Of a stretch of DNA of 64,000 nt, positions 1 to 13,891 are shown piece after piece. The stretch's first letter is position 1, and the number at the start of each line of letters is the position of its first letter. The notes beneath the pieces were generated by a model. It was not told the origin of the DNA. It searched no databases and saw only the letters and a list, made by a program, of their open reading frames with translations. The position numbers and the translations under genes are program-made. Source of the stretch: Candidatus Pelethousia sp. (GTDB lineage Bacteria > Bacillota > Clostridia > Christensenellales > CAG-138); the NCBI GenBank assembly GCA_034928145.1, contig JAYFPE010000016.1, forward strand, positions 6,953 to 70,952, given 5' to 3'.

Positions 1-575
1 CGTTGCAATCCAGTTACAATGTGATTAATGTCGACGATTATGGTGGATTCACACAGGGTATGCAGTTGCTGTATGCCCACGGGCATAGGAAAATTGGTTT
101 TATCAGCGGTCTTATGGAATCCCTGAGCAGTCATACCCGTTATAGCGCCTACGTACAATTTTTAGCGCAGCACGGACTCCCCTTGCGGGAGGAATATGTG
201 ATCAAGGGAGATTATACCTGGAATAGCGGCTACCAGGCTGCAAAAGAGTTTATGGCGCTCAGCGATCATCCTACCGCCATCTTTGCAGCTAACGACCTGA
301 TGGCCATCGGCTGCATGAAGGCGCTTCAAGAAATAGGGTTAGAGATTCCGGGTGATGTTTCGGTACTCGGTTACGACAACATCGAGATGACCAATCTTTG
401 TACACCGGGGTTGACCACCATCGAGCAACCCAAGTACGATCTGGGCGTTTGCAGCGTAGAAATGCTCCTGCGCAGGGTGGAAGAGCGCAATGCTGGAAAG
501 GAAAAGCAAAGCGAACACCTGATGATGGATACCTGCGTGGTTTTGCGCCACAGCGTGGGAGATGTCAAAGCGTAG
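1..575 (+). CDS. LacI/GalR-family transcriptional regulator, C-terminal effector-binding domain (5' end lies outside the window)
   Basis: The ORF is open from the window edge to TAG at 573-575. The translation shows the periplasmic-binding-fold core of LacI repressors (KIGFISG, AIFAANDLMAIGCMKAL, IPGDVSVLGYDN, TTIEQP). The HTH is absent because the gene is cut by the window. Confidence 0.85.
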   Translation, partial: LQSSYNVINVDDYGGFTQGMQLLYAHGHRKIGFISGLMESLSSHTRYSAYVQFLAQHGLPLREEYVIKGDYTWNSGYQAAKEFMALSDHPTAIFAANDLMAIGCMKALQEIGLEIPGDVSVLGYDNIEMTNLCTPGLTTIEQPKYDLGVCSVEMLLRRVEERNAGKEKQSEHLMMDTCVVLRHSVGDVKA

Positions 576-697
576 GAGAAGAGACTATCCGGTGGCGTTT
601 ACAAGGCGCTAAGGCGTCGTTCCCTACTATCCCATGGGCTCATCGATTATCAGCGCACCCGAAAGACCTTCGAAGCGAAAGTAAAAACATCCACAGA

Positions 698-711
698 ATG
701 AAACGTTACAT
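698..711. promoter_or_regulatory. candidate LacI-family operator O1 (ATGAAACGTTACAT)
   Basis: A 14-bp CG-centred imperfect palindrome (half sites ATGAAAC / ATGTAAC) sits directly downstream of the LacI-type gene and upstream of the operon. The 13-nt core ATGAAACGTTACA recurs exactly 60 bp downstream. Confidence 0.5.
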
Positions 712-732
712 AATCCCTTGAAAAAGCCCAGC

Positions 733-760
733 TTGATAAGTGTTTATTTGGAAGTATATG
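733..760 (+). promoter_or_regulatory. candidate sigma-A-type promoter (TTGATA - 16 nt - TATATG)
   Basis: A -35-like TTGATA lies at 733-738 and a -10-like TATATG at 755-760, in the AT-rich gap upstream of the RpiB-like gene. The -10 overlaps operator O2. Hexamer match only. Confidence 0.3.
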
Positions 761-771
761 AAACGTTACAA
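758..771. promoter_or_regulatory. candidate LacI-family operator O2 (ATGAAACGTTACAA)
   Basis: Second copy of the ATGAAACGTTACA core, starting 60 bp after O1 and overlapping the putative -10 element. Confidence 0.5.
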
Positions 772-853
772 TCTACCTGATAATAGATAATTTAAAATAG
801 GAGATATGGCCGCAGTCCCTGGGTGGGCGAATAAACAGGAGGATCGAGGATCT

Positions 854-1375
854 ATGTTCAAAAGAATTGCCATTGGCAACGACCATGGCGGTGTGGAAGC
901 GAAGAATCTGATTGTGGGCTATTTAACGGCGCATGGGTACGAAGTGACCAACATGGGCAGTGATACCGGGGAGATCGTGCGCTACCCTTACTATGCGGCG
1001 CAGGTATGCAATGCTGTTATAGAAGGCAAGGCCGATGGGGGGATCTTGATCTGCTCCACGGGCATCGGTATGAGCATTATGGCCAATAAATTCAAGGGCA
1101 TCCGGGCTTCCCTCTGCACCACGCCCTACCTGGCGCAGATGACCCGCCGCCATAACAATTCCAACGTGCTTTGCCTGGGCGGTAAAACCACCCCCCTGTC
1201 CGAGATTTCCGGCATTGTGGAGGAGTGGCTGCGCCATGAATATGAGGGGGGCAGGCACGATATCTCCCTGCGCATGATAGCTATGGGCGAGGATGCCATG
1301 GAGGGCGTATGCAAGTGGACGCCGCCCCAGGACATTTCCCTCAAGGAAGCAAATCAGGGGGAGGAGCGCGCATGA
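854..1375 (+). CDS. RpiB/LacA/LacB-family sugar-phosphate isomerase (pathway-specific paralog)
   Basis: ATG at 854 is preceded by AGGAGGA. The translation MFKRIAIGNDHGG...LICSTGIGMSI...RRHNNSNVLCLGG matches the RpiB fold, including the active-site Cys region. It carries a C-terminal extension of about 25 aa relative to the second rpiB at 36240-36683. Confidence 0.85.
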   Translation: MFKRIAIGNDHGGVEAKNLIVGYLTAHGYEVTNMGSDTGEIVRYPYYAAQVCNAVIEGKADGGILICSTGIGMSIMANKFKGIRASLCTTPYLAQMTRRHNNSNVLCLGGKTTPLSEISGIVEEWLRHEYEGGRHDISLRMIAMGEDAMEGVCKWTPPQDISLKEANQGEERA

Positions 1376-2214
1376 TGAAACTGTCGGTTGCCATTGCGGA
1401 CGCCGTTGCGGGCCCTTCCGCATTCGTTGTATGGCGCGGGTTTGAGGATTCCGCGCGGAAGGCAGCGGAATACGGATATCATGGCGTTGAGCTGGCGCTG
1501 CGTTGCAAGGAAGATGTGGATGCACCCGCACTCCGCCATTTGCTCAAGCAGTATGGGCTGGAGGTAAGCTGCGTCAGCACCGGGCAGGTCTTCGCGGATC
1601 TGGGCCTTTATTTGACCAATCCCGATGAGGCGCAGCGCGGAGAGGCGCTCCGGGTCCTCAACGGGCTGGTAGAGATGGCGGCGGAGTTTGGCGGTATGAT
1701 AAATCTGGGCCGCTGCCGGGGTTTCATCGCCCCCAACCAGGATAAGCGCGAGGCCACAGACTTGTTCTTAGGCTCTCTGGATATACTTCTGCCCATAGCG
1801 AAAAGCCTGGGCGTCACTGTGATCATCGAGCCGGTGAACCGGTATGAGATCAACTTCATCAACAATGTGGGAGAATGCGCTGCACTGCTTAAGGAAGTAG
1901 CACATCCCAATGTAGGGATCATGCCCGACGTGTTCCATATGAATATTGAGGATGCGCATATTGGCAGGGCGCTTGCCGACAACGCCGCCCTGGTCAAGTA
2001 CGTACATCTGGCCGATTCCAACCGGTTGGCGCCGGGATGGGGGCATCTTGACTTCAACGAGGTGTTCGCGGGTCTGCGGCAGGGTGGCTATGACGGCTGG
2101 GTCTCCATCGAAATATTGCCCAAGCCTGATCCCGATACGGCGGCCAGGCAGGCGGCCGACACCATACTGCCGCTGGTGCGGCGCTATAATGAAGGCGATA
2201 TGTTTTTTGCATAA
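1372..2214 (+). CDS. sugar phosphate isomerase/epimerase, xylose-isomerase-like TIM-barrel family
   Basis: ATG at 1372 overlaps the upstream stop (ATGA), with a GGGGGAGGA RBS. Motifs: YHGVELAL, IIEPVNRYE, YVHLADSNR, WVSIEILP, which are the metal-ligand pattern of this fold. Confidence 0.8.
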   Translation: MMKLSVAIADAVAGPSAFVVWRGFEDSARKAAEYGYHGVELALRCKEDVDAPALRHLLKQYGLEVSCVSTGQVFADLGLYLTNPDEAQRGEALRVLNGLVEMAAEFGGMINLGRCRGFIAPNQDKREATDLFLGSLDILLPIAKSLGVTVIIEPVNRYEINFINNVGECAALLKEVAHPNVGIMPDVFHMNIEDAHIGRALADNAALVKYVHLADSNRLAPGWGHLDFNEVFAGLRQGGYDGWVSIEILPKPDPDTAARQAADTILPLVRRYNEGDMFFA

Positions 2215-2275
2215 GCCGTACGGAACAGTTTCCGGCGGCAAAGCCGCCGGTATAATTCAAAGGAGGATATTTTCA

Positions 2276-3409
2276 ATGAAAAAAGGGCTTGTACTAATGA
2301 TGGCACTGCTCATGGTTCTCTCCCTGGCCGCCTGCGCCAACAATACGCCGGCGCCCGCGGCCCCGTCCGCGGAGGCTCCGGCCGCTACCGACAGTGAAGC
2401 AGCCGAAGCTTCGGCCGCTCCCGAAGCTTCCAATGAAGCGCTTAAGGTTGCCATCGTGCAGGGTATCCGCGGTGACAAAGGCTTCAACGACCAGGCCTAC
2501 CGCGGGATGGAAATGGCCGCGGCGGATTTCGGCATCACCTTCGACGGGGCCGAGTGCAACGATCTGGCCGAGGTGGATGCGGCGCTGCGCAACTATGCCG
2601 ATGCCGGGGATTATGACCTAATCATGGCCGTGGGCTCCAACTATGGGGACAGCCTCGCCCTGGTTGCCAGCGATTACCCGGATCAGAAGTTTTCCCTGGT
2701 GGATACCTTCATGGATCCCGCGCCCGAAAACGTCCACTGGAACGCCGCCATCGATGCGGAGCAGGGTTTTCTCTCCGGCGTCATCTCGGGCTTTGTGACC
2801 AAGGGCGATTATCCCGAAGTCTTCACCCGTGCCAATGCGGATAAAAACGTTATCGTCTATGCAGGCGGTGCCGATTCCCCCACCTCCCGCGCGGGCGCGG
2901 CTGGCTACATGGCCGGCGTATATTACGTAAACCCGGATTGTGAGATCATCTACAACATCGTGGGCAGCTACAATGATCCCGTCAAGGCTAAGGAAATTGC
3001 CATGAACGGCGTGGCCCGCGGCGCGGATATCATCACCGGCAACTGCGGCTCCGGCAGCATGGGCCTCAAGGAAGCCGCCAATGAAGCGGGCTGCTACTTT
3101 ATCGCCACTTCCCTCTCGGGCTTGGATCCCGTGTCCAGCCTGTGCACCTCGGTGAAGCTGAGCGAAAACCAGGTGTATGATGAGATCAAGGCTGTTGTGG
3201 AAGGCACCTGGACGTCCGGCGGCGAGCGCAAGGGCATTGCGGCGGGCTACTGCGACTACAGCGTAGAAGGCGTGAACATCGACTTCCCCCAGGAACTGCT
3301 GGATAAGGTGGACGCCGTGCGCGAAGCCATCAAGAACGGCCAAATCCAGCTTCCCACGGATGTGGACCAGCTCGATGCCTGGAAGGCCGCCAATCAATTC
3401 CAGGGCTAA
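2276..3409 (+). CDS. BMP-family (PnrA/Med/NupN-like) ABC-transporter substrate-binding lipoprotein
   Basis: ATG at 2276 follows an AAAGGAGGA RBS. There is a signal peptide with lipobox LSLAAC and an Ala/Pro/Ser linker, then KVAIVQGIRGDKGFNDQAY, typical of basic-membrane-protein nucleoside binders. The annotated longer ORF (from 1946) overlaps the upstream gene and was trimmed. Confidence 0.85.
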   Translation: MKKGLVLMMALLMVLSLAACANNTPAPAAPSAEAPAATDSEAAEASAAPEASNEALKVAIVQGIRGDKGFNDQAYRGMEMAAADFGITFDGAECNDLAEVDAALRNYADAGDYDLIMAVGSNYGDSLALVASDYPDQKFSLVDTFMDPAPENVHWNAAIDAEQGFLSGVISGFVTKGDYPEVFTRANADKNVIVYAGGADSPTSRAGAAGYMAGVYYVNPDCEIIYNIVGSYNDPVKAKEIAMNGVARGADIITGNCGSGSMGLKEAANEAGCYFIATSLSGLDPVSSLCTSVKLSENQVYDEIKAVVEGTWTSGGERKGIAAGYCDYSVEGVNIDFPQELLDKVDAVREAIKNGQIQLPTDVDQLDAWKAANQFQG

Positions 3410-3461
3410 TGCCCAGACCTTTCGAGGTTGACCGACAAATCTAAAGAGGTAGGTTGAGTCC

Positions 3462-4991
3462 GTGGAAATCATCAGAATGTCAGAGATCACCAAGCGATAT
3501 CCCGGAACGCTGGCGCTAAACAAGGTAGACGCGCGCCTGGAGGAGGGGGAGATTCTCTCTCTCCTGGGCGAGAACGGGGCCGGAAAGACCACGCTGATGA
3601 AGATCCTCTATGGTATGGAGAAGCCCGACGCGGGCGAGATATTCATCCGTGGGGAGAAAGTTGCGTTCAACAACCCCAATGATGCCATTGCCAGAGGAAT
3701 CTGCATGGTCCACCAGCACTTTATGCTGGTTCCGGCCTTTACGGTGATAGAGAATGTCATCGCGGGCATCGAGCCCCGCAAGGGCGTGTTTGTAGACCGA
3801 AGGGCTGCGGAAAGCAAGGTGGCCGCGCTGGTGGAAAAGTACCGCTTTAACATCGACCCTCACGCCAAGGTTGGGAGCCTATCCGTAGGCGAGCAGCAGC
3901 GCGTGGAGATTTTAAAGGCACTGTACCGGGACGCCAAGATCCTGATTCTGGATGAGCCTTCCGCGGTCCTGACCCCTTATGAGGTGGACGAGCTGTTTGT
4001 CACGCTGCGCTTTTTGCGGGAGCAGGGCACCAGCATCGTCATCATCACCCATAAGCTCAAGGAAACCATGAACGTGGCCGACCGCGTAATGGTGTTGCGC
4101 AACGGTGTGCTTATCCACGACGATGTGAAACCCACCGATACCAACCCCCAGGAACTCTCTGCAATGATGGTGGGCCGCCTGATCCAATTGGAGGCCCGCC
4201 ATCCTTCCCCCCGCATCGGAGACGTGAAATTCAGCGTCAAAAACCTCACAGTGAAGGACGAGCGGGGATGCGAGAAAGTGAAAGACGTGAGCTTCGACAT
4301 CCGCGAAGGGGAGATATTGGGTATCGCCGGCATTGAGGGCAACGGCCAGTGCGAACTCATCGAGGCCCTCACAGGGCTGACCACACCCGAATCCGGCGAG
4401 GTATTGCTGGATGGCAAACCCCTTTGCGGCACCGCGCGTGATTTTATAGACAGAGGTGTTGGCCATGTCCCCGAGGACCGCACCCACATGGGCCTGATTG
4501 CGCCCATGACGATAAAATGCAACATGATCTTAGGCTATCAGGATTCCCCGGATATGAGCCGCCATAAGCTGATGCGCTGGAAGGAGATCACCGCCTATGC
4601 AGAGACCTGCCGGGAGGAGTTTGGCGTAAAAACCCCCACCGTGGAAGCACCGGTGAGCTCCCTTTCGGGGGGCAACCAGCAAAAGGTGATCATCGCGCGG
4701 GTGCTTTCCCGTGAGCACGAAGCGTTGATCGTAGCGCACCCCACCCGGGGCATCGACGTAGGCGCCCAGGAGTACATTCACAACGAACTGTACAAATTCC
4801 GAGATAAGGGCAAGGCCATGCTCCTCATCTCGGCGGATTTGGACGAGGTTGTCAAGCTCAGCGACCGGCTGCTGGTGATTTATGAGGGGCGCATCGTTGC
4901 GGACTGCGGGCCTGAGGAGTTTTCCAAGGTACAGCTCGGGCTTCTGATGACGGGTAATTCTCTAGAAAGCGTAAAGGAGGTGGGCGCATGA
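3462..4991 (+). CDS. ABC transporter ATP-binding protein with two fused ABC domains
   Basis: Walker A is GENGAGKTT and the signatures are LSVGEQQ and LSGGNQQ. The second nucleotide site is degenerate (GIEGNGQ), as in ribose/nucleoside-type importers. The start (GTG 3462 versus ATG 3477) is uncertain. Confidence 0.9.
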   Translation: MEIIRMSEITKRYPGTLALNKVDARLEEGEILSLLGENGAGKTTLMKILYGMEKPDAGEIFIRGEKVAFNNPNDAIARGICMVHQHFMLVPAFTVIENVIAGIEPRKGVFVDRRAAESKVAALVEKYRFNIDPHAKVGSLSVGEQQRVEILKALYRDAKILILDEPSAVLTPYEVDELFVTLRFLREQGTSIVIITHKLKETMNVADRVMVLRNGVLIHDDVKPTDTNPQELSAMMVGRLIQLEARHPSPRIGDVKFSVKNLTVKDERGCEKVKDVSFDIREGEILGIAGIEGNGQCELIEALTGLTTPESGEVLLDGKPLCGTARDFIDRGVGHVPEDRTHMGLIAPMTIKCNMILGYQDSPDMSRHKLMRWKEITAYAETCREEFGVKTPTVEAPVSSLSGGNQQKVIIARVLSREHEALIVAHPTRGIDVGAQEYIHNELYKFRDKGKAMLLISADLDEVVKLSDRLLVIYEGRIVADCGPEEFSKVQLGLLMTGNSLESVKEVGA

Positions 4992-6094
4992 ACGAGCATA
5001 ACAGAAAGCGGGTTGCGGACGGCATCACGATATTCGGGCGCTCCGCCTTGGCGCTTCTGGCGGCGCTGCTCATTGGCGGCGTGGTCATTTCCCTGGGCGG
5101 CTATTCCTTTATGGAAGTCTACACCGCTATCTTCAAAGGCTCTCTTGGCACATCTCGGGGTATGCTGCTATCCCTAGCCACCGCCACGCCGCTGATGTTC
5201 ACCGGGTTGGGGTTTGCCATTGGCATCAAGGTTGGCATCGTCAACACGGGTTTGGAAGGACAGCTTTACATGGGCGGCCTGACCGCGGCGCTGGTGGGCA
5301 TCTATGTGGACTTTTTGCCCGGTGCGACCCACGCAGCGGCCACCATGTTGGCAGGCGCCATCGGCGGCGGCGCCGTGGGCCTGCTGATGGGCTGGTTCCG
5401 CACGCGTTTCGGCGCGCCCGAGGTCATCACGGGCATCATGCTCAACAGCATCATTACATATTTTACCGGGTATCTGGTCAACGGGCCTCTCAAGCCCGCT
5501 GGCGCGGGCTCCCCCCAGACGGCACCCATCCTCAAAAGCGCCGAGCTATCACGCCTTGCTTCCAAATCCCAGCTTACCACGGCGCTGATCGTTTGCGTGA
5601 TCCTGTGCATTCTCATTTATCTCCTGCAAAAGCGCACGATATGGGGATTCAAGATGACAGCCGTGGGAATGAACCCACTGGCGGCTAAAGTGGCCGGCAT
5701 CAACGACTCGCGGATGTACCTGGCCGCCCTGGTGCTTTCGGGCGCCATGGCCGGGCTGGGCGGCGCGGCGCTGGTGCAGGGCGTGTTCAAACGCTTTGTG
5801 GATGTTATCTCCAACGGCTACGGCTTCCAAGGCATTCCGGTATCCGCCCTGGCGGCGCATAACCCTCTGGGTGTGATTTTTGCAGCCATCCTTTTCGGCG
5901 TACTGAAGGCAGGGGCGACCATGGTGAACCAGAGCACCACCATTCCGTTTGAGTTCGTGGATATGGTGCAGGCCCTGGTGGTGGTGTTCGTGGCCGCGCC
6001 CTCCATCATCCTTTCGCCCATACAAAAAATCAGGAGCATCATCAAAAAGAAGGGCGGCGGCTCGGCCGCCGCAGGTCAGGGGGGTGCGGCATGA
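4988..6094 (+). CDS. ABC transporter permease (BMP/nucleoside-type)
   Basis: Multi-TM hydrophobic protein. An ATGA start/stop overlap with the ATPase gene suggests translational coupling. Confidence 0.85.
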   Translation: MNEHNRKRVADGITIFGRSALALLAALLIGGVVISLGGYSFMEVYTAIFKGSLGTSRGMLLSLATATPLMFTGLGFAIGIKVGIVNTGLEGQLYMGGLTAALVGIYVDFLPGATHAAATMLAGAIGGGAVGLLMGWFRTRFGAPEVITGIMLNSIITYFTGYLVNGPLKPAGAGSPQTAPILKSAELSRLASKSQLTTALIVCVILCILIYLLQKRTIWGFKMTAVGMNPLAAKVAGINDSRMYLAALVLSGAMAGLGGAALVQGVFKRFVDVISNGYGFQGIPVSALAAHNPLGVIFAAILFGVLKAGATMVNQSTTIPFEFVDMVQALVVVFVAAPSIILSPIQKIRSIIKKKGGGSAAAGQGGAA

Positions 6095-7017
6095 ACAGCG
6101 ATATCATACTCGCCATTATTACATCGACGCTGCGGCTTTCGGTTCCCGTTATGCTGGCGGCGGTGGGCTGCTCCTTCTCTACACGGGCCGGCGTAACCGC
6201 ATTCGGCTGCGAGGGCATGATGGCCGCGGGCGCCATCTTCGCCGTCATCGGATCGGACTTTACAGGGAGCAAATGGATCGGCGTCTTGCTGGCGATACTG
6301 GCAGGTATGCTCGTCTCTTCCCTGCATGCTGTGCTGCACGTAAAATACAGGGTTAACGCCACGCTTTCGGGCATGAGCGTGAACCTTCTGGGAGCTGCCC
6401 TGGGGGCGCTGGCGCTCAAGCTGGTATGGAAGGTTTCCGGCATGTCTCCGGATGTGGCGGCGTTTTCCAAAATTGCGGCCACCCCCAGCCTGAGCTGGAT
6501 GGCGCGCATACCGGTGATCGGTTACGTGTTGGGCGAACAAAGCCTCTTTTTGCTGATCACCATCGCGGTCGTAATTGTGGGCTGGGTGTTCTTATATAAG
6601 ACCACCTTCGGCCTGCGCATGCGCATGGTAGGCGAAAACCCGGTGGCAGCCAATACCGTGGGCATCAACACGGTGCGGTACAAGTACATGGGCGTATTGG
6701 TGTGCGGTCTGCTTTCCGGCCTGGCCGGCGCCTTCCTCTCCCTGGTGGGCATGAACCGCTACATCATCGGCATGACGGCGGGCCGCGGCTACGTGGCTAT
6801 GGTCATCAACAACCTGGGGGCTTCTAACCCTATAGGATCAGCTCTATCGGCCCTGTTCTTCGGCTTCTTCGATTGTTTGCAGTTCGTATTTCAGGGCGTG
6901 CGTACCCCCAGCCAAATCTTGATGATGCTGCCTTATGTGTTCACGCTGATCATCTGCGTGGGCAATACCAAGCGGTCCAAGGGACCGGCCGGCGTGGGCC
7001 AGCATTTTGACAGCTAA
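6091..7017 (+). CDS. ABC transporter permease (second subunit)
   Basis: Multi-TM protein homologous in character to the preceding permease, with an ATGA overlap at 6091-6094. Confidence 0.85.
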   Translation: MNSDIILAIITSTLRLSVPVMLAAVGCSFSTRAGVTAFGCEGMMAAGAIFAVIGSDFTGSKWIGVLLAILAGMLVSSLHAVLHVKYRVNATLSGMSVNLLGAALGALALKLVWKVSGMSPDVAAFSKIAATPSLSWMARIPVIGYVLGEQSLFLLITIAVVIVGWVFLYKTTFGLRMRMVGENPVAANTVGINTVRYKYMGVLVCGLLSGLAGAFLSLVGMNRYIIGMTAGRGYVAMVINNLGASNPIGSALSALFFGFFDCLQFVFQGVRTPSQILMMLPYVFTLIICVGNTKRSKGPAGVGQHFDS

Positions 7018-7068
7018 GCGTATACATAACCGGCGGCACAGCCGCCAAGATAATACAGGAGGAAAGAT

Positions 7069-7878
7069 ATGAAACGCAGTGAATTAAAATCCGTATTCGG
7101 TACTTCCCGTCCCATTTTGGGTATGATACATCTGCCGCCCCTGCCCGGTTCCCCCAACTACCAGGGCAGCATGACGCAGGTAATAGACCATGCGCTGCGG
7201 GATGCGGATGCCCTGGTGACCAACGGCATCTCCGCTATGATCGTGGAGAACCTGGGAGATTACCCCTACTACCCTGTCACGCAGGAGCCCGAGACCGTGG
7301 CCGCCATGACCCGTGCGGCGCTGGAACTGCGCAGGGCTTACCCCAACGTGCCCCTGGGCATCAACGTGCTGCGCAATTCCTGGAAGAGCGCCCTTGCCAT
7401 CGCTTCCATTGCGGATGCCCAGTTTATCCGCCTCAACATTCTGACGGATACCATGGTGACGGACCAGGGCATGCTCAACGGCGAGGCGCACTTGGCACTC
7501 CGCTACCGCAAGGCCATCGGCGCCGAGCAAGTGCTTCTGTTCTGCGACCTTTACTCCAAGCACGCCGCGCCGCTCGCCCCGCGCGATATCACTACGGTGG
7601 CGCATGAGATGGTGGGCCGCGGCATGGCCGACGCGCTGATTATTTCCGGCACCGAAACGCCTGTGCCGCCCAAGAAAGAGGATGTCGAAGAGGTGCGCCG
7701 CGCCGTGCCCGAAACGCCGATCATCCTGGGCAGCGGCGTGACCCTGGGCGCCCTGGATACGGTTGCCCTGGCCGATGGCACGGTGTTCGGCTACGGCACA
7801 AAACCCAGCGGCAATATGAATGATCCGGTGGATGGGCCTACCGTTAAGAAATTCATGGACGCGGTGCGCGCCCTTTAG
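7069..7878 (+). CDS. BtpA/SgcQ-family TIM-barrel protein (biochemical function unknown)
   Basis: The translation ILGMIHLPPLPGSPNY...MIVENLGDYPYY...GINVLRN...IISGTETP matches my recollection of the BtpA/SgcQ family. An AGGAGGA RBS lies upstream. Confidence 0.7.
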   Translation: MKRSELKSVFGTSRPILGMIHLPPLPGSPNYQGSMTQVIDHALRDADALVTNGISAMIVENLGDYPYYPVTQEPETVAAMTRAALELRRAYPNVPLGINVLRNSWKSALAIASIADAQFIRLNILTDTMVTDQGMLNGEAHLALRYRKAIGAEQVLLFCDLYSKHAAPLAPRDITTVAHEMVGRGMADALIISGTETPVPPKKEDVEEVRRAVPETPIILGSGVTLGALDTVALADGTVFGYGTKPSGNMNDPVDGPTVKKFMDAVRAL

Positions 7879-7979
7879 CGAAACCGGCGGCGATTTTTAC
7901 ACCCCAAAGCCGCGCGAAGGAAATAGGAACGCCCTGATCAGAGCGTTCCTTCATAATAATTAAGGAAAGGTGGTTTCCT

Positions 7980-8984
7980 ATGAGCGAAGAAAAGAGAATT
8001 CCCCTCATCATCGATACCGATCCTGGCGACGACGATGCCGCCTCCATCCTGTGGGCGCTCTCTTGCGGTAAGTTTGACGTGAAGGCGCTCACCATCGCAA
8101 GCGGTAACGTAGGGCTGGATAAATGCGCAATTAATGCGCTGCGTACCTTGGAGGTTAGCAAGCGCACGGATATTCCGGTCTATAAAGGCGCATGGAAGCC
8201 TATTGTGATTCCGGCACAGGATGCGAGCTGGATTCACGGGGAGGACGGCCTCGGAGACGCGGGATTCCCTCTGCCCCAAACCCCAGTTACGCCGGGGTAT
8301 GCGCCGGCCGAGATGGTGCGCATTGCCAAAGAATCCCTCGAACCCATCACGATTCTGGCCCTGGCTCCCATCACCAACGTAGCCCTGGCCATACTCTTGG
8401 ACGCCGATTTTAAAAAGCACGTCAAAGAGGTGGTATTTATGGGTGGCGCGGTACGGGTACCCGGCAATATCAGCCCTGGGGCGAGCTTCAATGTGGCTGC
8501 CGATCCCCACGCCGCTTCCATCGTTTATAATTCCGGCATCCCGGTGGTGCAAGTGGGCCTGGATGCGTGCGACCAGGTGACCCAGCGCTGGGAGGATCTG
8601 GATGAGATCGGCCTGGCCGGCACGGCTGTGGCGGATTTCGTGGTACGCATGATGGAGTTCCGGCGGGATAAGGCGGTCAAGGTCATTAAGAACGAGAAGG
8701 GCGAGGTGGTAAGCCGCATCCCCGCCGGCGCACAGGCCGGCCGCGGGAAGCGCGGCATTGGCCTCAACGATTTGACTACCACCGCTTACCTTATCAACCC
8801 CGGCTGGTTCAAGGCGCAGGAAGTGACCATGGATATCGAAACCGGTGGCCTGACTCCCGGTCGAACCACGGCGGATTTCTTCGGCCTGTGGGGCAAAAAG
8901 CCCAACTGTACTTTTGTATACGAAGCGGACGGCCCGGCGCTGGTTGAACGATGGGTGGAGGATATTAAGTCGTTCCGCCCGTAG
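7980..8984 (+). CDS. nucleoside hydrolase (IU-NH fold) paralog 1
   Basis: N-terminal Ca-binding signature IIDTDPGDDDA (DXDXXXDD), plus WIHGEDGLGD, SFNVAADPHAA and GLNDLTTTAYLINP. Confidence 0.9.
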   Translation: MSEEKRIPLIIDTDPGDDDAASILWALSCGKFDVKALTIASGNVGLDKCAINALRTLEVSKRTDIPVYKGAWKPIVIPAQDASWIHGEDGLGDAGFPLPQTPVTPGYAPAEMVRIAKESLEPITILALAPITNVALAILLDADFKKHVKEVVFMGGAVRVPGNISPGASFNVAADPHAASIVYNSGIPVVQVGLDACDQVTQRWEDLDEIGLAGTAVADFVVRMMEFRRDKAVKVIKNEKGEVVSRIPAGAQAGRGKRGIGLNDLTTTAYLINPGWFKAQEVTMDIETGGLTPGRTTADFFGLWGKKPNCTFVYEADGPALVERWVEDIKSFRP

Positions 8985-9010
8985 ATCCGCACGAGCAAAA
9001 AGGAGATCCA

Positions 9011-10015
9011 ATGGATACAATCAAAAAGATTCCCTTGATTATCGATACCGACCCGGGTGATGATGACGCCGCCTCCATCCTGTGGGCGCTCTCCTGTGGC
9101 AAATTTGACGTCAAGGCGCTCACCATCGCAAGCGGCAATGTGGGGCTGGATAAATGCGCCATCAATGCGTTACGCACGCTGGAGGTTAGCAAACGTATCG
9201 ATATCCCCGTCTATAAGGGCGCGTGGAAGCCTATCATGATTCCGGCACAGGATGCGAGTTGGATCCATGGTGAGGATGGCTTGGGTGATGTGGGCTTCCC
9301 CCTGCCCCAAACGCCTGTTACGCCGGGGTATGCACCGGTAGAGATGGTGCGTATCGCCAAAGAATCACCGGAGCCCATCACGATTCTGGCCCTGGCCCCC
9401 ATCACCAATGTGGCCTTGGCCGTACTCCTGGACCACGATTTTAAAAACCACGTCAAAGAGATCGTCTTTATGGGGGGAGCCGTAGGTGTTCCGGGCAATA
9501 CAAGCCCTGGTGCGAGCTTCAATGTAGCCGCCGATCCCCACGCTGCTTCCATCGTATATAACGCCGGCATTCCTGTGGTTCAGGTAGGCTTGGATGCATG
9601 CGATCAAGTGACACAGCGCTGGGAGGATCTGGACGAAATCGGCCAAGCCGGCACCGCCGTGGCGGATTTCCTGGTGCGTATGATGGAGTTTCGTCGGGAC
9701 AAGGCGGTCAAGATCATCAAAAACGAAAAGGGCGAGGTGGTTGCCCGCATGGCTGCGGATGAGGAGGCCGGCCGCGGGAAAACGGGAATCGGCCTCAACG
9801 ATCTGACCACCACCGCTTACCTCGTTAACCCGGGCTGGTTCAAGGTTCGGGAAGTGGCCATGGATATTGAAACCGGCGGGCTGACCCCGGGCAGGACAAC
9901 GGCCGATTTCCATGGCCTGTGGGGAAGAGAGCCCAACTGCACCTTCGCGTACGGGGTAGACGGCCCGGCGCTGGTTCGCCGGTGGGTGGAAGATATCAAG
10001 GCATTCCACCCGTGA
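9011..10015 (+). CDS. nucleoside hydrolase (IU-NH fold) paralog 2
   Basis: Same length (334 aa) and same motifs as paralog 1, with about 39 differences in my manual alignment. Confidence 0.9.
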   Translation: MDTIKKIPLIIDTDPGDDDAASILWALSCGKFDVKALTIASGNVGLDKCAINALRTLEVSKRIDIPVYKGAWKPIMIPAQDASWIHGEDGLGDVGFPLPQTPVTPGYAPVEMVRIAKESPEPITILALAPITNVALAVLLDHDFKNHVKEIVFMGGAVGVPGNTSPGASFNVAADPHAASIVYNAGIPVVQVGLDACDQVTQRWEDLDEIGQAGTAVADFLVRMMEFRRDKAVKIIKNEKGEVVARMAADEEAGRGKTGIGLNDLTTTAYLVNPGWFKVREVAMDIETGGLTPGRTTADFHGLWGREPNCTFAYGVDGPALVRRWVEDIKAFHP

Positions 10016-10035
10016 AATGGGAGAGGAGAGATATC

Positions 10036-11025
10036 ATGGACGAAAACAAGAGGCGCGCCATCATTATCGATACCGACCCCGGTGTGGATGACGCAGCGTC
10101 GCTGTTTTGGGTGCTGGCCAACCCACGGTTTGATATCAAGGCCATCACTATCGCCAACGGCAACGTCTCCTTAGACCAATGCGCCGTCAACGCCCTCAAA
10201 ATTTTGGAGGCAGCCGGCCAAAGCCATATCCCCGTATACATCGGCGCGCCCGATCCCCTTCTGCGTCCCACCGTGGACGCGGCTTGGGTGCATGGCAACG
10301 ATGGGCTGGGGGACGCGGGCTTCCCCATACCCAAAGCCCTAGCCGCGCCGGGCTATGCCCCCGCCGAGATGGCGCGCATCGCTGCCGAATGCGGGGAAGT
10401 CACCATTTTGGCCTTGGCGCCCTTGACCAACGTAGCTCTGGCGGTACGGCTGGACCCGGATTTTAAAAAGCATGTCAAAGAGATCCTTTTCATGGGCGGC
10501 GCGGTGCGGGTGCCCGGCAACGAAAGCCCGGCCTCCAGTTTTAACCCCGCGGTGGACCCGGATGCGGCGCGGATCGTATACCGCTCGGGCATTCCGGTGG
10601 TACAGCTTGGCCTGGATGTGTGTGACAAGGTGCGGGAGATGCCCGAGGATTTCGAAAAGCTGGCCGCTGTGCATACGCCGGTTACGGATTTTATCTTGCG
10701 CATGCTTGCCTTTATTCGCCATAAGGCCCGCCGCGTTTATACCGATGAATCGGGGCAGGTCACAGGCGTGGATGCGATACAGGATAGCGCCGGCGTGGGC
10801 CTCAATGACCTGACCGCCACCGCTTATCTGATCGAGCCGCGCTGGTTTAAGACCAGGGCGCTCTACATCGATATTGATACCGCGGGGCTCTGCCCCGGGC
10901 AGACGGTGGCGGATTTTCGGGGTATGTGGGGCAAGCAGCCCAACGCTCTATGGGCCTATGATGTGGATGCCCGCGCTGCGGTGGACCGCTGGGTAGCGGA
11001 TATTTGCGCATACCGGCCCTTATGA
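10036..11025 (+). CDS. nucleoside hydrolase (IU-NH fold) paralog 3
   Basis: ATG at 10036 (MDENKRRAIIIDTDPGVDDA) follows a GAGAGGAGAG RBS. The listed ORF start at 9919 overlaps paralog 2 and was trimmed. Confidence 0.85.
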   Translation: MDENKRRAIIIDTDPGVDDAASLFWVLANPRFDIKAITIANGNVSLDQCAVNALKILEAAGQSHIPVYIGAPDPLLRPTVDAAWVHGNDGLGDAGFPIPKALAAPGYAPAEMARIAAECGEVTILALAPLTNVALAVRLDPDFKKHVKEILFMGGAVRVPGNESPASSFNPAVDPDAARIVYRSGIPVVQLGLDVCDKVREMPEDFEKLAAVHTPVTDFILRMLAFIRHKARRVYTDESGQVTGVDAIQDSAGVGLNDLTATAYLIEPRWFKTRALYIDIDTAGLCPGQTVADFRGMWGKQPNALWAYDVDARAAVDRWVADICAYRPL

Positions 11026-11043
11026 TAGGAGGAGAGAAAGACC

Positions 11044-12063
11044 ATGATTGAAGAGAAGATTCCCGTGATCATCGACACCGACCCTGGCGACGACGATGCC
11101 GTTGCCATACTCTGGGTCCTTGCCAACTCCCGCTTTGATGTAAAGGCCTGCACCGTAGGCTATGGGAACGCCGGCACGGAAAAGTGCGTGTGCAACATGC
11201 TGCGTATACTGGAGGTGGCGGGCAGAACGGATATCCCTGTGTATGCTGGCGCACACCGCCCCCTTTTGGGGCGGGCGGAAAACGCCGCCTGGATTCACGG
11301 GGAGGACGGATTGGGCGACGCAGGCTTCCCCCTGCCGGATGCGCAGCCTGCGCCGGGCTATGCGCCTGTGGAAATGATACGCCACGCAAAGGAATCCAAG
11401 GAGCCCGTGACCCTGCTGTGCCTTTCGCCCGTCACCAACGTAGCCCTGGCATACCTTTTGGACCCGACCTTTAAGGACCATGTCCGAGAGGTTCTCATTA
11501 TGGGCGGCGCGGTGCGCGTGCCGGGCAATGCCAGCCCCGGGGCCAGCGCCAATCTAAAGAACGATCCCTGGGCCGCGCAAATCGTCTACCGCTCGGGCAT
11601 GCGGGTAGTACAGCTAGGGCTGGATACCTGCAACAAAATGACGGAACTGGATGAGGATTGGGCCGCTTTGGAGGCCGCGAAAACGCCGGTAACGGATTTC
11701 ATCATTCGGATGCTGCGCTTCCGCCGGGAACAGGCTGTGCGCGTGATCACCGATCAGGCGGGCAATGTGCGGCGGCTCTCCCAGGCAGAGGAAATGCCCG
11801 ACCACGCAGGGGGTATAGGGCTCAACGATGTGGCCGCCACGGCTTACCTGATCGAACCCAATTGGTTTAAAACCCGAGAGGTTTATATCGACATCGACGC
11901 CGACTCCCTGTGCCCCGGCCGCACCGTGCCGGATATGCACGGCTTATGGGGTAAGGCGCCCAACGCGCGCCTGGCCTACGATGTGGATGGCCGCGCTGCG
12001 GTGGATCGGCTAATGAGCGACCTTATCGCCTTCCGTCCCCGCAATGGCCGCGTGTATTCGTAA
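11044..12063 (+). CDS. nucleoside hydrolase (IU-NH fold) paralog 4
   Basis: Motifs VIIDTDPGDDDA, WIHGEDGLGD, ANLKNDPWAA and GLNDVAATAYLIEP. Confidence 0.85.
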   Translation: MIEEKIPVIIDTDPGDDDAVAILWVLANSRFDVKACTVGYGNAGTEKCVCNMLRILEVAGRTDIPVYAGAHRPLLGRAENAAWIHGEDGLGDAGFPLPDAQPAPGYAPVEMIRHAKESKEPVTLLCLSPVTNVALAYLLDPTFKDHVREVLIMGGAVRVPGNASPGASANLKNDPWAAQIVYRSGMRVVQLGLDTCNKMTELDEDWAALEAAKTPVTDFIIRMLRFRREQAVRVITDQAGNVRRLSQAEEMPDHAGGIGLNDVAATAYLIEPNWFKTREVYIDIDADSLCPGRTVPDMHGLWGKAPNARLAYDVDGRAAVDRLMSDLIAFRPRNGRVYS

Positions 12064-12134
12064 GCTGTGCCGTAATCGTTAATTGACTCGCTTGGCTTTA
12101 TGAAGATTATGGGTGCTGGACAAGGCAAACAAAT

Positions 12135-12177
12135 AAAACGTAAAGCAGGCGGCATTCGGCCGCCTGCTTTACGTTTT
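12135..12177 (+). terminator. rho-independent terminator (bidirectional type) ending the hydrolase operon
   Basis: A perfect 19-bp stem (AAAACGTAAAGCAGGCGGC / GCCGCCTGCTTTACGTTTT) with a 5-nt loop, an A-tract on the 5' side and a T-tract on the 3' side. Confidence 0.8.
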
Positions 12178-12716
12178 GGAGTCATGATGCACGTTTTCCC
12201 GAAATGTTTATTCAGCATATCTACCGCAGGCCACTCCTTTTCCCCGGATAAATGCGCAACTTTACAGCGTGAATTGGATATCCGAAAACTCCGAAAACTT
12301 CCATGTGGCTTTCTCAAGGGCTTTCAGACTAGGGAGATGGCCAAATTCCGCCTGCGCATTGCCTTCATACATCTTTTCTTCCGCTCCCATTTCCGACCCC
12401 CCTTTGAATCCTCCCAAATCATTTCGTCCGCTTACATTCACCCTTCTCCCTATCACCATACAAACCCGCTTCCCAAACCGTTATGGACCTCGCAAAACCA
12501 AATTCATTGCTTCCTCCTTTCAGTTACACGGCTTCTTTCATTTCCTCCCGCATCATGGAATTGCTTTAAGCACCATGATTTATGGAACAGCTGGAAGACA
12601 TCTTCAATTCGCACCTAGTCCTCTTCTGTATAGGATTGCTTTAGTTCCATAGAAAGGTAATGGGACACGCTAAGGAAAAATAAGTATAGTACACAACGAA
12701 AATCAGGAGTGAGGGC

Positions 12717-12920
12717 ATGAGACAAGGGGGTGTTTGTAAGGTCGTTATTCATATGCCCGAATCCATACATGCCCTCTCTTCCAGGCTTAACGCTTTCTAT
12801 ATCGAAGTGCTTGAAAGAAGGCTCGGCCAGTCTAACCTGACCATGCGTGAAAAGACTCTTGTGCTAAATCGGATATTCTCGAACATGAAATCGGGGGAGG
12901 CCGGGGAGGCCGTCGAATAG
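12717..12920 (+). CDS. hypothetical small protein (67 aa); coding status doubtful
   Basis: ATG with AGGAG 7 nt upstream and a helical-looking translation. It overlaps the convergent XRE-like ORF by 89 nt and lies in a decayed low-GC zone. Confidence 0.25.
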   Translation: MRQGGVCKVVIHMPESIHALSSRLNAFYIEVLERRLGQSNLTMREKTLVLNRIFSNMKSGEAGEAVE

Positions 12921-13098
12921 GTGCTTGTGTAGTCGCCATATGTTGTATGGCGGTTTGCTGTTCCTTGTTTCCCCAGATTAAGGGAGCGTGCCTTACGCCC
13001 ATAATGATGGCTAATTCTTCCTGTGTGAGTTCGTAGAGCTTGCGGTATTTTTTCAGATGTACCCCATAAACGCCACCATCATCGATTGACAAGCACAA
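12832..13098 (-). CDS. XRE-family HTH-like small protein, possibly a remnant
   Basis: The N-terminal part LKKYRKLYELTQEELAIIMGV...W.N resembles the helix-turn-helix of Cro/CI-type regulators. The C-terminal part is proline-rich and non-descript, and the start codon is uncertain. Confidence 0.35.
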   Translation of the reverse strand: MCLSIDDGGVYGVHLKKYRKLYELTQEELAIIMGVRHAPLIWGNKEQQTAIQHMATTQAPIRRPPRPPPISCSRISDLAQESFHAWSG

Positions 13099-13147
13099 TA
13101 CTGCCTTTCATCTTTTTATCGGCTGCCGGGAAGAATTTTGTTGCCCT

Positions 13148-13891
13148 TTGTGTGGTGGCGCATTCCCTACCATGATCAGCGTGATCGCCATGTTCTTTGT
13201 GGGCGGCGTTGGGGGCTGGTTGGGATCGGCGCTGGGGGCGGCGCTGCTCACGGGGATGGTGGTGCTGGGCGTGGGCTGCACCTTCGGCGTTTCCTGGCTG
13301 CTATCTAAAACGGTGCTGCGGGGCGTGCCATCTTCCTTTACGCTGGAGATGCCGCCCTGCCGCAAGCCGCAGGTGGGCAAGGTAATCCTGCGCTCGATGC
13401 TGGACCGCACCATCTTCGTATTGGGTCGGGCGGCGGCTGTGGCCGCGCCTGCTGGCCTGCTCATCTGGGGCATGGCCAATATATCCGTTAACGGCGGCAC
13501 GCTCCTCTTTCATTGCGCCGCTTTTTTGGAGCCGCTAGGCCGCCTCATGGGCCTGGACGGGGTAATTCTGCTGGCCTTTATCTTGGGCCTGCCCGCCAAT
13601 GAGATTGTTGTGCCCATCATCATTATGGCCTACCTGCAAAGCGGCGCCCTGCTTGAATTGGAAAGCCTGGGCGCTTTGCGCGCGCTGCTGACCGGCAACG
13701 GATGGACGCCGCTCACCGCCCTTTGCACGCTGCTGTTTTCCCTGCTGCATTGGCCCTGCGCCACCACCCTTTTGACCATCCGCAAAGAAACGGGCAGCTG
13801 GAAATGGACGGCCCTGGCCTTTGCCCTCCCCACCGGCCTGGGCATGGCGCTCTGCATGCTGGCCGCGGCTTTTTGGCGCCTGCTGGTTTAG
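13148..13891 (+). pseudogene. feoB: ferrous iron transporter FeoB, C-terminal membrane fragment only (5'-truncated)
   Basis: The translation carries FeoB C-terminal hallmarks: FTLEMPPCRKPQ (compare ELPxYRxP), LGLPANEIVVPIIIMAY and LLHWPCATTLLTIRKETGSWKW. The G-domain and first gate domain (about 400 aa) are absent, and unrelated low-GC DNA lies upstream. Confidence 0.6.

Follow-up and report, generated by a model that had tools for sequence, protein, structure and literature searches.

Which compound would be degraded by an operon that encodes a nucleoside-type importer, four nucleoside-hydrolase-fold enzymes, and a BtpA/SgcQ-family protein, and how would the released sugar enter metabolism when a family scan of the operon revealed, as had been noted before, no ribokinase, nucleoside phosphorylase, or phosphopentomutase? 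The question is raised by positions 3–12177 of a 64,000-nt stretch (hereafter the window) of contig JAYFPE010000016.1 (assembly GCA_034928145.1) from Candidatus Pelethousia sp. The unit consists of a truncated LacI gene, two identical operator boxes, eleven co-directional genes, and a strong terminator. With moderate confidence, we read it as a LacI-repressed operon for the catabolism of nucleoside-type N-ribosides. Its features, which include (β/α)8 barrels of the triosephosphate isomerase (TIM) type and the components of an ATP-binding cassette (ABC) importer, are as follows.

3–575, plus strand: LacI-family repressor, C-terminal 190 residues, with the helix-turn-helix end outside the window (Pfam Peripla_BP_3, 127 bits)
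699–710, no strand assigned: operator-like box O1, TGAAACGTTACA, an imperfect palindrome with a central CG, of an over-represented pattern
759–770, no strand assigned: operator-like box O2, TGAAACGTTACA, the same as O1, 60 bp further downstream
854–1375, plus strand: RpiB*, a putative specialised RpiB/LacAB-family isomerase paralogue (Pfam LacAB_rpiB, 170 bits)
1372–2214, plus strand: ketose 3-epimerase-family TIM barrel (Pfam AP_endonuc_2, 146 bits)
2276–3409, plus strand: BMP-family lipoprotein, the predicted substrate-binding protein of the ABC importer (PF02608, 121 bits)
3462–4991, plus strand: two-domain ABC ATPase with a GTG start (two ABC_tran domains)
4988–6094, plus strand: ABC permease (BPD_transp_2), in ATGA overlap with the ATPase gene
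6091–7017, plus strand: ABC permease (BPD_transp_2), in ATGA overlap with the previous permease gene
7069–7878, plus strand: BtpA/SgcQ-family (β/α)8 barrel (PF03437, 237 bits)
7925–7950, plus strand: near-perfect hairpin or palindrome of 26 nt in the btpA-nh1 spacer, without a U-run
7980–8984, plus strand: nh1, IU-NH-fold hydrolase of the S/N-D subfamily defined below, clade B (PF01156, 256 bits)
9011–10015, plus strand: nh2, tandem duplicate of nh1 (88% amino acid and 81.5% DNA identity)
10036–11025, plus strand: nh3, S/N-D IU-NH-fold enzyme, clade A
11044–12063, plus strand: nh4, S/N-D IU-NH-fold enzyme, clade A (PF01156, 251 bits)
12135–12177, no strand assigned: likely bidirectional intrinsic terminator, a perfect 19-bp hairpin with an A-run on one side and a T-run on the other

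The eleven genes all lie on the plus strand and are separated by successive gaps of −4, 61, 52, −4, −4, 51, 101, 26, 20, and 18 nt; 3 of the junctions are ATGA start/stop overlaps, and a GGAGG-like ribosome-binding site precedes each start. The gene set, its order, and its tight spacing are thus those described in an earlier note on this DNA, and every family named there was recovered by Pfam or NCBIfam profile hidden Markov models. The LacI gating proposed in that note agrees with the repressor gene and the two operator boxes; its start of the unit at position 698 coincides with the first operator, whereas the LacI gene itself lies upstream. The importer architecture that it recognised is likewise found, with a lipobox in the BMP lipoprotein, a fused double ATPase, and two BPD_transp_2 permeases.

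The LacI fragment is 94% identical to the full-length 338-residue LacI of the related locus L001 (the loci of relatives are given by such handles), which carries PF00356, and the top NCBIfam partial matches of its ligand domain are CytR, PurR, and RbsR, all far below their cut-offs. O1 and O2 lie in the 278-nt spacer between the LacI gene and the rpiB-like gene. O2 borders A+T-rich −10-like hexamers, placed by eye (TATATG, 755–760; GATAAT, 779–784 and 786–791), and a consensus promoter scan called no sigma-70 site in this spacer. With up to 2 mismatches, the TGAAACGTTACA pattern has 6 matches in the window, O1 and O2 each being scored on both strands, compared with 1.44 expected, and none of 100 shuffles reached 6. 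The same motif occurs in L001 both 5' of lacI and 5' of rpiB*, L094 has a perfect TGAAACGTTTCA 5' of btpA, in the interval that separates it from LacI, and the Bacillus-type cluster L009 has TGGAAACGTTTCCA in the interval between LacI and its first structural gene, which encodes a metallo-β-lactamase-like (MBL) protein. We take the core of the motif, AAACGTT, to resemble the operators of PurR and RbsR. The hairpin at 12135–12177 likely closes the operon as a bidirectional intrinsic terminator, and an Rfam scan of the window found no riboswitch and no other RNA family.

The hairpin in the btpA-nh1 spacer has a folding z-score of −1.6, that is to say, its stability is not unusual, and since it has no U-run it does not appear to be a clear terminator. 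In L001 (positions 10858–11095), this element (AGGAACGCCCTGATTAGAGCGTTCC) occurs twice and flanks an insertion of approximately 215 nt with terminal inverted repeats (GTCAAAAA...TTTTTGAC); this insertion looks like a small miniature inverted-repeat transposable element with a target duplication.

The four hydrolases depart from the described IU-NH enzymes. Alignment of nh1 with Escherichia coli RihA (PDB 3g5i) revealed that the DXDXXXDD motif and every ligand of Ca2+ and of the ribose 2'- and 3'-hydroxyls are retained. Residues D12, D14, D18, D19, N43, T132, N163, N171, and D264 are invariant in nh1–nh4 and present in 119–120 of the 120 closest database homologues, which reach down to 51% identity (in Cf numbering, the Ca2+ and ribose ligands are D10, D14, D15, N39, T126, N160, N168, and D242). 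Two residues are replaced in nh1–nh4 and in all 120 homologues: (i) the RihA Glu (AAEFN; the 5'-OH-binding residue, Cf E166) is Ser169; and (ii) the RihA catalytic His (LHD; H239) is Asn263. In IU-NH enzymology, this Glu anchors the 5'-OH and this His protonates the leaving base. Because these are the residues replaced, both the 5' pocket and leaving-group activation would be altered. The fold and the metal and ribose ligands are therefore shared with RihA, RihB, and RihC, whereas the 5'-OH Glu and the group-defining leaving-group residue, His in group I, Trp in group II, or Cys in group III, are not found.

Among 96 open reading frames (ORFs) of the IU-NH fold from a metagenome scan, which served as a control, the Glu/His-Asp combination occurs in 47; the Glu is retained in 83 and replaced by Ser, Thr, or Asp in 13; Asn for His alongside Glu occurs in 13 cases. 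The mark of the subfamily is, as judged from these alignments, the combination of Ser with Asn-Asp and not Asn alone; we designate it S/N-D. All hydrolases linked to a BtpA at least 48% identical to that of the window have N-D in place of H-D, and at the Glu site they have Ser in Clostridia, Treponemataceae, and Bacilli and Asp plus an insertion in Actinobacteria. We assign nh1–nh4 to a distinct IU-NH subfamily, previously unrecognised, and the case that the earlier note named as refuting its reading, namely that they are ordinary inosine/uridine enzymes, does not agree with two replacements found in 120 of 120 homologues. Leaving-group activation in this subfamily, and probably the substrate too, would differ from those of the three textbook groups.

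In the tree, nh3 and nh4 cluster with a BtpA-adjacent hydrolase of Treponema (Treponemataceae), and nh1 and nh2 cluster with a second Treponema enzyme and with an enzyme of Enterocloster aldenensis. The four hydrolases are accordingly placed by their sequences in two ancient clades, nh1 and nh2 being a predicted younger duplicate pair.

Two further groups of IU-NH genes were also seen. In L108, L112, L116, L121, L125, and L136, a canonical Glu/His-Asp gene is directly followed by a Glu/Asn-Asp paralogue, with an energy-coupling factor (ECF) transporter nearby in 5 of the 6 loci; this Glu/Asn-Asp type is classed, by its residues, as a non-canonical class different from S/N-D. In L007 (positions 3483–6636), L101, and L102, distant S/N-D hydrolases (38%–41% identical to nh1) adjoin 1 or 2 Q_salvage (DUF2419/Qng1-like) genes, which hints at a link of that distant branch with queuosine-type nucleosides.

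RpiB*, the first gene product of the operon, passes the rpiB equivalog TIGR01120 (171.3 bits; cut-off, 138.65) and has the catalytic Cys/His motifs NDHGG, ICSTG, and HNNSN. It has GGRHxISL instead of GGRHxxR, so that the second phosphate-binding Arg is replaced by Ser in all 9 distinct BtpA-linked copies; this Arg is kept in E. coli RpiB, whose phosphate-binding pair we take to be R133 and R137, and in the housekeeping RpiB of the window. Clostridium thermocellum RpiB reportedly becomes more active on free sugars when a phosphate-site Arg is removed. The 9 BtpA-linked copies also have in common ICSTGIGMS, IVRYPYYA, and a C-terminal tail. The housekeeping gene lies where the earlier note had placed it.

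36240–36683, minus strand: housekeeping rpiB, in the context of upp, a phosphatase-like ORF, sua5, prfA, and prmC

The phosphatase-like ORF, of the low-molecular-weight type, is named here by sequence alone. The RpiB* signature is missing from the housekeeping RpiB, and the two copies are 39% identical. We designate RpiB* a pathway-specific copy, as had been proposed, on the strength of a signature that occurs in every BtpA-linked copy.

The second gene product, the TIM barrel, has TM0416 (PDB 2zvr) as its closest PDB sequence, with full-length similarity (150 bits), followed by D-allulose, D-tagatose, and L-ribulose 3-epimerases. Its acidic and His motifs of the metal site (iiEPvNRyE, DvfHmniE, HlaDsnR, and vsiE) align with those of TM0416. 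The match to the NCBIfam equivalog IolO (5-keto-L-gluconate epimerase) is 238 bits, below the cut-off of 300, and the similarity to UlaE is only 25–27 bits. The protein is assigned by these matches to the free-ketose 3-epimerase family and not to IolO. Because of this family membership and the Arg loss in RpiB*, some of the processing may act on unphosphorylated sugar.

The BtpA/SgcQ-family protein scores 236.7 bits with PF03437 (cut-off, 30) and 234.7 bits with TIGR00259 (cut-off, 153.4), and its 250.7 bits with NF045918, the equivalog of the cyanobacterial BtpA of photosystem I biogenesis, are below the cut-off of 400. Neither the scanned ORFs of the window nor the neighbourhoods around this BtpA subclade, as labelled with Pfam, include a photosynthesis gene. 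An AlphaFold2 model built on 74 sequences (mean predicted local distance difference test score, 94.8) is a (β/α)8 barrel. The polar residues invariant in the 74 sequences are E60, N61, D64, R102, N103, R121, N123, D132, Q133, D160, K164, H165, and R184; most are located at or just past the strand ends, and D132 and Q133 lie within a β-hairpin insertion. A standard phosphate-binding motif (GSG...G) is formed by G221-S222-G223 and G241. When the profile was compared with PDB sequences, only this C-terminal motif was matched (GGGPS, OMP decarboxylase, IMPDH, and TrpA), and Foldseek comparison of the model with the PDB returned only generic phosphate-binding barrels (Kce, TrpA, GGGPS, ThiE, RPE, KGPDC, and PRAI; TM-scores of 0.55–0.59); in particular, RPE and KGPDC have only the C-terminal phosphate motif in common with BtpA. 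The PDB searches found no close relative and no solved structure for the family. Transfer of a reaction from these matches was rejected, as only generic barrels and the phosphate motif are shared. The modelled protein looks like an enzyme with a phosphate-bearing substrate. No BtpA/SgcQ biochemistry, and no reaction assigned to the family, was found in the full-text literature searched, in agreement with the earlier description, and an exact-sequence look-up did not find this BtpA on record in the collection searched.

The lipobox of the BMP lipoprotein is LSLAAC. Its nearest PDB sequences are 4pev and 7x0r, its similarity to PnrA/TmpC is distant (38.7 bits), and further BMP-family matches are 6pi5, deposited as an atrazine-binding protein, and 4iil (TpN38(b)), which we take to be the riboflavin-binding RfuA. 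The top NCBIfam match of the ATPase is a "putative B6 ABC transporter ATP-binding protein" (441 bits, under its cut-off). As judged from its architecture, the importer would take up nucleoside-type compounds.

Is the association of these genes conserved? We took one genome per species, labelled the neighbours of btpA by tblastn in 80 loci, and counted IU-NH genes within 10 kb. Where BtpA is at least 48% identical to that of the window, an IU-NH gene is present in 25 of 36 loci, which span Clostridia, Treponemataceae, Bacilli, and Actinobacteria; DeoC and purine nucleoside phosphorylases (PNPs) are present in 4 more, and most of the remaining loci are short contigs. Around more distant BtpAs, an IU-NH gene occurs in 1 of 44 loci, and that one is of the canonical Glu/Trp-Asp type. 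No neighbour family recurs around BtpAs below 47% identity beyond within-lineage synteny (at most 5 of 44 loci), and a Pfam scan of a few of these neighbourhoods was uninformative. Chance adjacency of BtpA and IU-NH was rejected by this census. BtpA, RpiB*, and the TIM barrel are co-conserved with the S/N-D hydrolases across phyla, as the earlier note's grouping of these genes had implied.

The clusters of relatives, several of which were reached by exact-protein look-ups, vary around this core. L001, from a metagenome-assembled genome of an uncultured Clostridia bacterium, has a BtpA 97% identical to that of the window and the same 12-gene layout. At 71% BtpA identity, the core RpiB*-TIM-Bmp-ABC-permease-permease-BtpA-IUNH recurs and is extended by a second TIM barrel, tandem cytidine deaminase (Cdd), a ComB-like phosphatase, DeoC, and PNP and uridine phosphorylase genes; here the DeoC is a true one (TIGR00126, 202 bits), and the three phosphorylases are two DeoD-type PNPs and a uridine phosphorylase. 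L004–L006 have one S/N-D hydrolase beside three phosphorylases. The Treponemataceae cluster has the order ABC-permease-permease-IUNH-BtpA-Bmp-RpiB*-IUNH, with a 5'-nucleotidase nearby; beyond a divergent GntR gene it continues with TIM, a split transketolase, an iron-type alcohol dehydrogenase (Fe-ADH), LarA, and a 2-hydroxyacid dehydrogenase (2-Hacid_dh). In L094, the order is LacI-BtpA-RpiB*-XylB-like kinase, and approximately 5 kb upstream are BMP-type permeases together with an IF-2B/PNP/class II aldolase/PNP set. In L014–L018, the order is BtpA-DeoC-PNP-PNP, deoB was not seen in an 18-gene cluster, and an amidohydrolase belongs to the MtaD/DadD type of deaminase, with 5'-deoxyadenosine deaminase as the second-best match (204 bits, below the cut-off). 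The E. aldenensis cluster (L096) has the order LacI-LacI-RpiB*-TIM-IUNH-split transketolase-TIM2-2-hydroxyacid dehydrogenase-sulfatase-TctCBA.

In Bacilli, a LacI or PfkB-type regulator gene is followed by MBL, a short-chain dehydrogenase/reductase (SDR), BtpA, IUNH, an amidohydrolase, an ECF transporter, an Asp/Glu racemase, HIBADH, a DUF1537 kinase, and a class II aldolase. In Microbacterium, BtpA lies approximately 2 kb from a cluster comprising a major facilitator superfamily (MFS) transporter, IUNH, class II aldolase, DUF1537, AP_endonuc_2, a dehydrogenase, and MBL. Across the 8 cluster types, a split transketolase is present in 5 and a kinase gene in only 2 (XylB-like in L094 and SKI-family in L096). 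ComB-like phosphatases occur in exactly the PNP-containing clusters, a distribution that fits a free pentose as the common intermediate. Tripartite ATP-independent periplasmic (TRAP) or tripartite tricarboxylate (TTT) transporters are found in L019, L021, and L096.

Three details of these clusters stand apart. In the Bacillus-type clusters L024, L029, L030, and L033 (at approximately 9.0–10.8 kb in each), two tandem BtpA paralogues lie between SDR and IU-NH. Directly 5' of BtpA, a conserved 401-residue protein is encoded in L014 (8767–9969), L015 (8739–9935), and L016 (4398–5603); it has no Pfam match and a weak match to the NCBIfam model SftI (sulfoquinovose isomerase; 86.6 bits, cut-off 700), and probably represents a previously undescribed member of the FucI-like superfamily, with free-sugar isomerase activity. 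In E. aldenensis, the sulfatase and the TctCBA tripartite transporter (L096, 14784–19369) continue the cluster, and its substrate could possibly be sulfated or otherwise anionic.

The gene content and the relatives' clusters lead us to infer the following pathway, including its substrate class, the sequence of its reactions, a transketolase step, and a part for BtpA. The BMP lipoprotein and its ABC importer would take up nucleoside-type compounds, and the four S/N-D enzymes, predicted to be cytoplasmic, would cleave the N-glycosidic bond to release the base and a pentose. RpiB*, as an aldose-ketose isomerase, would convert the pentose to a ketose, the TIM enzyme would epimerise C3 to give a xylulose-type ketose, and BtpA, as a putative phosphate-binding barrel enzyme, would also take part in pentose processing. 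A transketolase would then pass C1-C2 to a phosphorylated acceptor, so that the carbon enters the pentose-phosphate pathway without a dedicated kinase. This last step is proposed because of the split transketolases of the relatives, the scarcity of kinases, and the precedent of the sulfo-transketolase (sulfo-TK) pathway; argued by analogy with the relatives' clusters, it is tentative and carries about half the confidence that we place in the operon assignment. A scan of ten further ORFs in the window, each about as long as a kinase gene, returned no match to PfkB or FGGY, and the only FGGY-like tblastn match in the window is far off, at approximately 61.2 kb.

Several observations weigh against the pathway as outlined. 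No transketolase gene is present in the window operon. BtpA has a phosphate motif, yet the operon encodes no kinase; because of this, its substrate would have to come from an unlinked kinase or from transketolase. RpiB* passes the cut-off of the rpiB equivalog and may do no more than isomerise ribose 5-phosphate. The hairpin in the 101-nt btpA-nh1 gap could split the operon into two transcription units. The association with BtpA is looser when the IU-NH genes are taken as the starting point: the E. aldenensis cluster has no BtpA within 10 kb, and three metagenomic S/N-D loci of at least 8 kb (L103, L105, and L115) have none nearby. The label of sugar-phosphate module in the earlier note may be partly wrong, given the free-ketose family of the TIM barrel and the Arg loss of RpiB*. 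Its proposal of an unusual riboside or modified nucleoside as the substrate is not established, since Cdd, phosphorylases, and DeoC in the relatives leave ordinary nucleosides possible.

Within the general model, we kept ordinary nucleosides and 5'-blocked nucleosides as separate alternatives. Scavenging of the canonical A, G, C, and U ribonucleosides, with an unlinked ribokinase and with RpiB*, TIM, and BtpA as auxiliary pentose-phosphate enzymes that raise flux, strikes us as fairly unlikely. It would account for the TIGR01120 score of RpiB*, for the Cdd, DeoD-type PNPs, uridine phosphorylase, and true DeoC of the relatives and the 5'-nucleotidase of Treponemataceae, for two hydrolase clades that could be purine- and pyrimidine-preferring, and for a LacI ligand domain nearest to CytR, PurR, and RbsR. 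It does not sit well with the loss of Glu and His in all 120 homologues, the Glu being kept in 83 of 96 other IU-NH ORFs; moreover, an S/N-D hydrolase beside three phosphorylases (L004–L006) would be redundant on canonical substrates, a free-ketose epimerase has no role in the textbook pentose-phosphate pathway, and the genome already has a housekeeping rpiB. A blocked 5' position is hinted at by the lost 5'-OH Glu, the lost Arg of RpiB*, the kinase-free design, and the gene sets of relatives. From 5'-deoxyadenosine, methylthioadenosine (MTA), or compounds of the S-adenosylhomocysteine (SAH) type, the hydrolases would release a 5-substituted ribose that is not phosphorylatable at C5; RpiB* would form the ketose, TIM would epimerise C3, and transketolase would pass C1-C2 onto glyceraldehyde 3-phosphate, leaving a C3 aldehyde, such as lactaldehyde, to be reduced or oxidised. 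This scheme as a whole we consider unlikely. The Glu-to-Ser change in the 5' pocket, the Arg lost from RpiB*, and the mostly kinase-free cluster types with split transketolase agree with it, as do the lactaldehyde/lactate-type enzymes that follow transketolase in Treponemataceae (Fe-ADH, LarA, and 2-hydroxyacid dehydrogenase), the MtaD/DadD-type amidohydrolase of L014–L018, the set approximately 5 kb from the L094 cluster, which resembles the dihydroxyacetone phosphate (DHAP) shunt, and the TRAP/TTT transporters of L019, L021, and L096, which fit an anionic substrate such as SAH. All of this support is circumstantial, however: Asn is unable to protonate adenine N7, Cdd, uridine phosphorylase, and DeoC (L004) have no role on substrates of the 5'-deoxyadenosine type, the phosphate site of BtpA has no obvious substrate except the transketolase product, and four paralogues suggest variety of the base over variety at 5'.

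A different role for BtpA, on ribose 1-phosphate, as a phosphopentomutase substitute or an isomerase, would make this compound the common intermediate of IU-NH-type and PNP-type clusters, and the S/N-D "hydrolases" might then be phosphorylases. We find this improbable. BtpA is indeed linked to either S/N-D IU-NH genes or PNPs, the order BtpA-DeoC-PNP-PNP of L014–L018 recalls a deo operon in which deoB would be replaced by BtpA, the phosphate site and several invariant Arg residues could hold a second phosphate, and the missing ribokinase would be explained; but ComB-like phosphatases in exactly the PNP clusters fit a free pentose intermediate, we know of no TIM-barrel phosphopentomutase and no IU-NH-fold phosphorylase, and E. 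coli has both deoB and sgcQ. Very improbable, in our view, is salvage of a micronutrient, in which the hydrolases would release a 7-deazapurine or another vitamin-like base, for instance queuine out of queuosine, with the sugar genes being incidental. Q_salvage (Qng1-like) genes do neighbour distant S/N-D genes in L007, L101, and L102, Bacilli S/N-D genes adjoin ECF transporters, and 7-deazapurines have no N7 to protonate, which fits the loss of His. However, 11 genes with four hydrolases and three sugar enzymes are oversized for a trace nutrient, tgt, queL, and other Q genes are not in the window operon, and the Clostridial clusters carry genes of bulk catabolism, for PNPs, DeoC, and transketolase.

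The preferred reading, catabolism of nucleoside-type N-ribosides, can also be placed against described systems. The BMP lipoprotein, fused ATPase, and two permeases are those of the NupNOPQ (Bacillus subtilis) and PnrA (Treponema pallidum) importers, PnrA being only a distant relative of the window Bmp at the score given above. Compared with nucleoside importer and Rih systems, the window operon adds RpiB*, the ketose epimerase, and BtpA, and has no rbsK or deo genes. In the als (RpiB plus AlsE) and ula (UlaD plus UlaE) systems, an isomerase or AP_endonuc_2 epimerase plus a phosphate-binding barrel act on ketose phosphates; the window TIM barrel is of the free-ketose type (TM0416) instead of the UlaE type. 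Pathways for inositol (IolO), erythritol (EryC/EryI), D-allose (als), ascorbate (ula), apiose, and tetronate were considered and rejected: each has 1 or 2 families in common with the operon, but the window lacks the kinases, dehydrogenases, or transporters that define it. In Bacilli and Actinobacteria, BtpA and IU-NH do occur together with genes of the tetronate type (HIBADH, DUF1537 kinase, and class II aldolase). Also rejected were the 2'-O-methylnucleoside hydrolases (RK9NH and AgNH, with DERA-like aldolases), which belong to a different cluster without BtpA, because the enzymes of this operon keep D18 and N171, the residues that bind the 2'-OH.

The sulfo-TK pathway, in which the terminal carbon of the sugar is not phosphorylatable, comprises an isomerase, a split transketolase, a PF02502 isomerase, and Fe-ADH (PMC9594981). 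Clusters of the relatives share with it (SqvD, SqwGH, SqwI, and SqwF) the split transketolase, the PF02502 isomerase, Fe-ADH, and the lack of a kinase, and the counterpart of its free-sugar isomerase is the FucI/SftI-like protein of L014–L016. The window operon differs in that (i) the sulfoquinovosidase YihQ, SqvD, and SqwGH are not present, entry being by N-ribosyl cleavage instead; (ii) a ketose 3-epimerase and BtpA are extra; and (iii) a sulfonate substrate is not indicated, save by the TRAP/TTT transporters of some relatives. The 5-deoxyribose salvage (DrdK/DrdI/DrdA; PMC6079011) and the DHAP shunt (PMC10986504), which handle nucleosides with a blocked 5' carbon, both start with glycosidic cleavage followed by aldose-ketose isomerisation, as proposed here. 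Their C1 kinase or MTA phosphorylase, MtnA-family isomerase, and class II aldolase are not in the window operon, and DHAP-shunt-type genes were found only near the L094 variant.

The sgcABCEQX genes of E. coli place the PF03437 protein SgcQ next to a pentose-phosphate-type enzyme, the RPE-like SgcE; uptake there is by a phosphotransferase system, as opposed to the ABC importer here, and sgc has no IU-NH, RpiB, or ketose epimerase. A 2026 E. coli transcriptome atlas calls the role of sgcABCEQX putative and reports 16- to 25-fold induction of the operon in "Group D", a set of conditions in which the carbon source contains nitrogen and growth is slow; inosine and ribose-1-phosphate are discussed in the legend to Group D, and the 43 substrates tested include adenosine and inosine (PMC13343008). 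This induction agrees, indirectly, with a nucleoside link. No described cluster of this composition was found in the full-text literature searched, and no characterised pathway matches it, as stated earlier: sulfo-TK, als, ula, erythritol, apiose/tetronate, 5-deoxyribose salvage, and the DHAP shunt share parts only.

The BtpA/SgcQ family spans bacteria, archaea, and cyanobacteria (E. coli SgcQ and cyanobacterial BtpA), and one of its subclades is placed here in nucleoside catabolism beside defined partner enzymes, which gives PF03437, and the S/N-D subfamily with it, a testable metabolic context. Cultured carriers include E. aldenensis, Clostridium sp. 1001271st1 H5, Oceanobacillus, Lysinibacillus sphaericus, and Agromyces. 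If the kinase-free, transketolase-dependent route is true, the logic of sulfoquinovose degradation would extend to nucleoside sugars in gut and digester anaerobes. More speculatively, and with low confidence, PF03437 could supply the missing step in a widespread and so far undescribed route that degrades nucleosides with a ribose not phosphorylatable at C5, the candidates being 5'-deoxyadenosine, MTA, and SAH-type by-products of S-adenosylmethionine chemistry, or another 5'-modified class. In such a route, S/N-D hydrolases would release the sugar, which anaerobes would degrade by isomerase, 3-epimerase, and transketolase, whereas aerobic Bacilli and Actinobacteria would use dehydrogenase, lactonase, DUF1537 kinase, and decarboxylase; BtpA would catalyse a new reaction shared by the two branches.

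Beyond the terminator, synteny with L001 stops, and L001 runs on into the S10 ribosomal operon. In the window, positions 12064–13147, directly after the last hydrolase gene and around and past the terminator, form a low-GC stretch (approximately 0.48, compared with 0.58–0.61 in the operon) with no convincing gene; a 172-residue ORF (12100–12618) crosses the terminator hairpin and is probably spurious. The ORF at 13148–13891 has a TTG start, and its similarity to FeoB is confined to the C-terminal domains FeoB_C and Gate; it may be a truncated gene or a remnant. Further away, a V-type ATPase subunit (vATP-synt_AC39, 30746–31726) is encoded among minus-strand ORFs at approximately 26.6–34.9 kb; this run is probably part of a V/A-type ATPase operon unrelated to the nucleoside operon.

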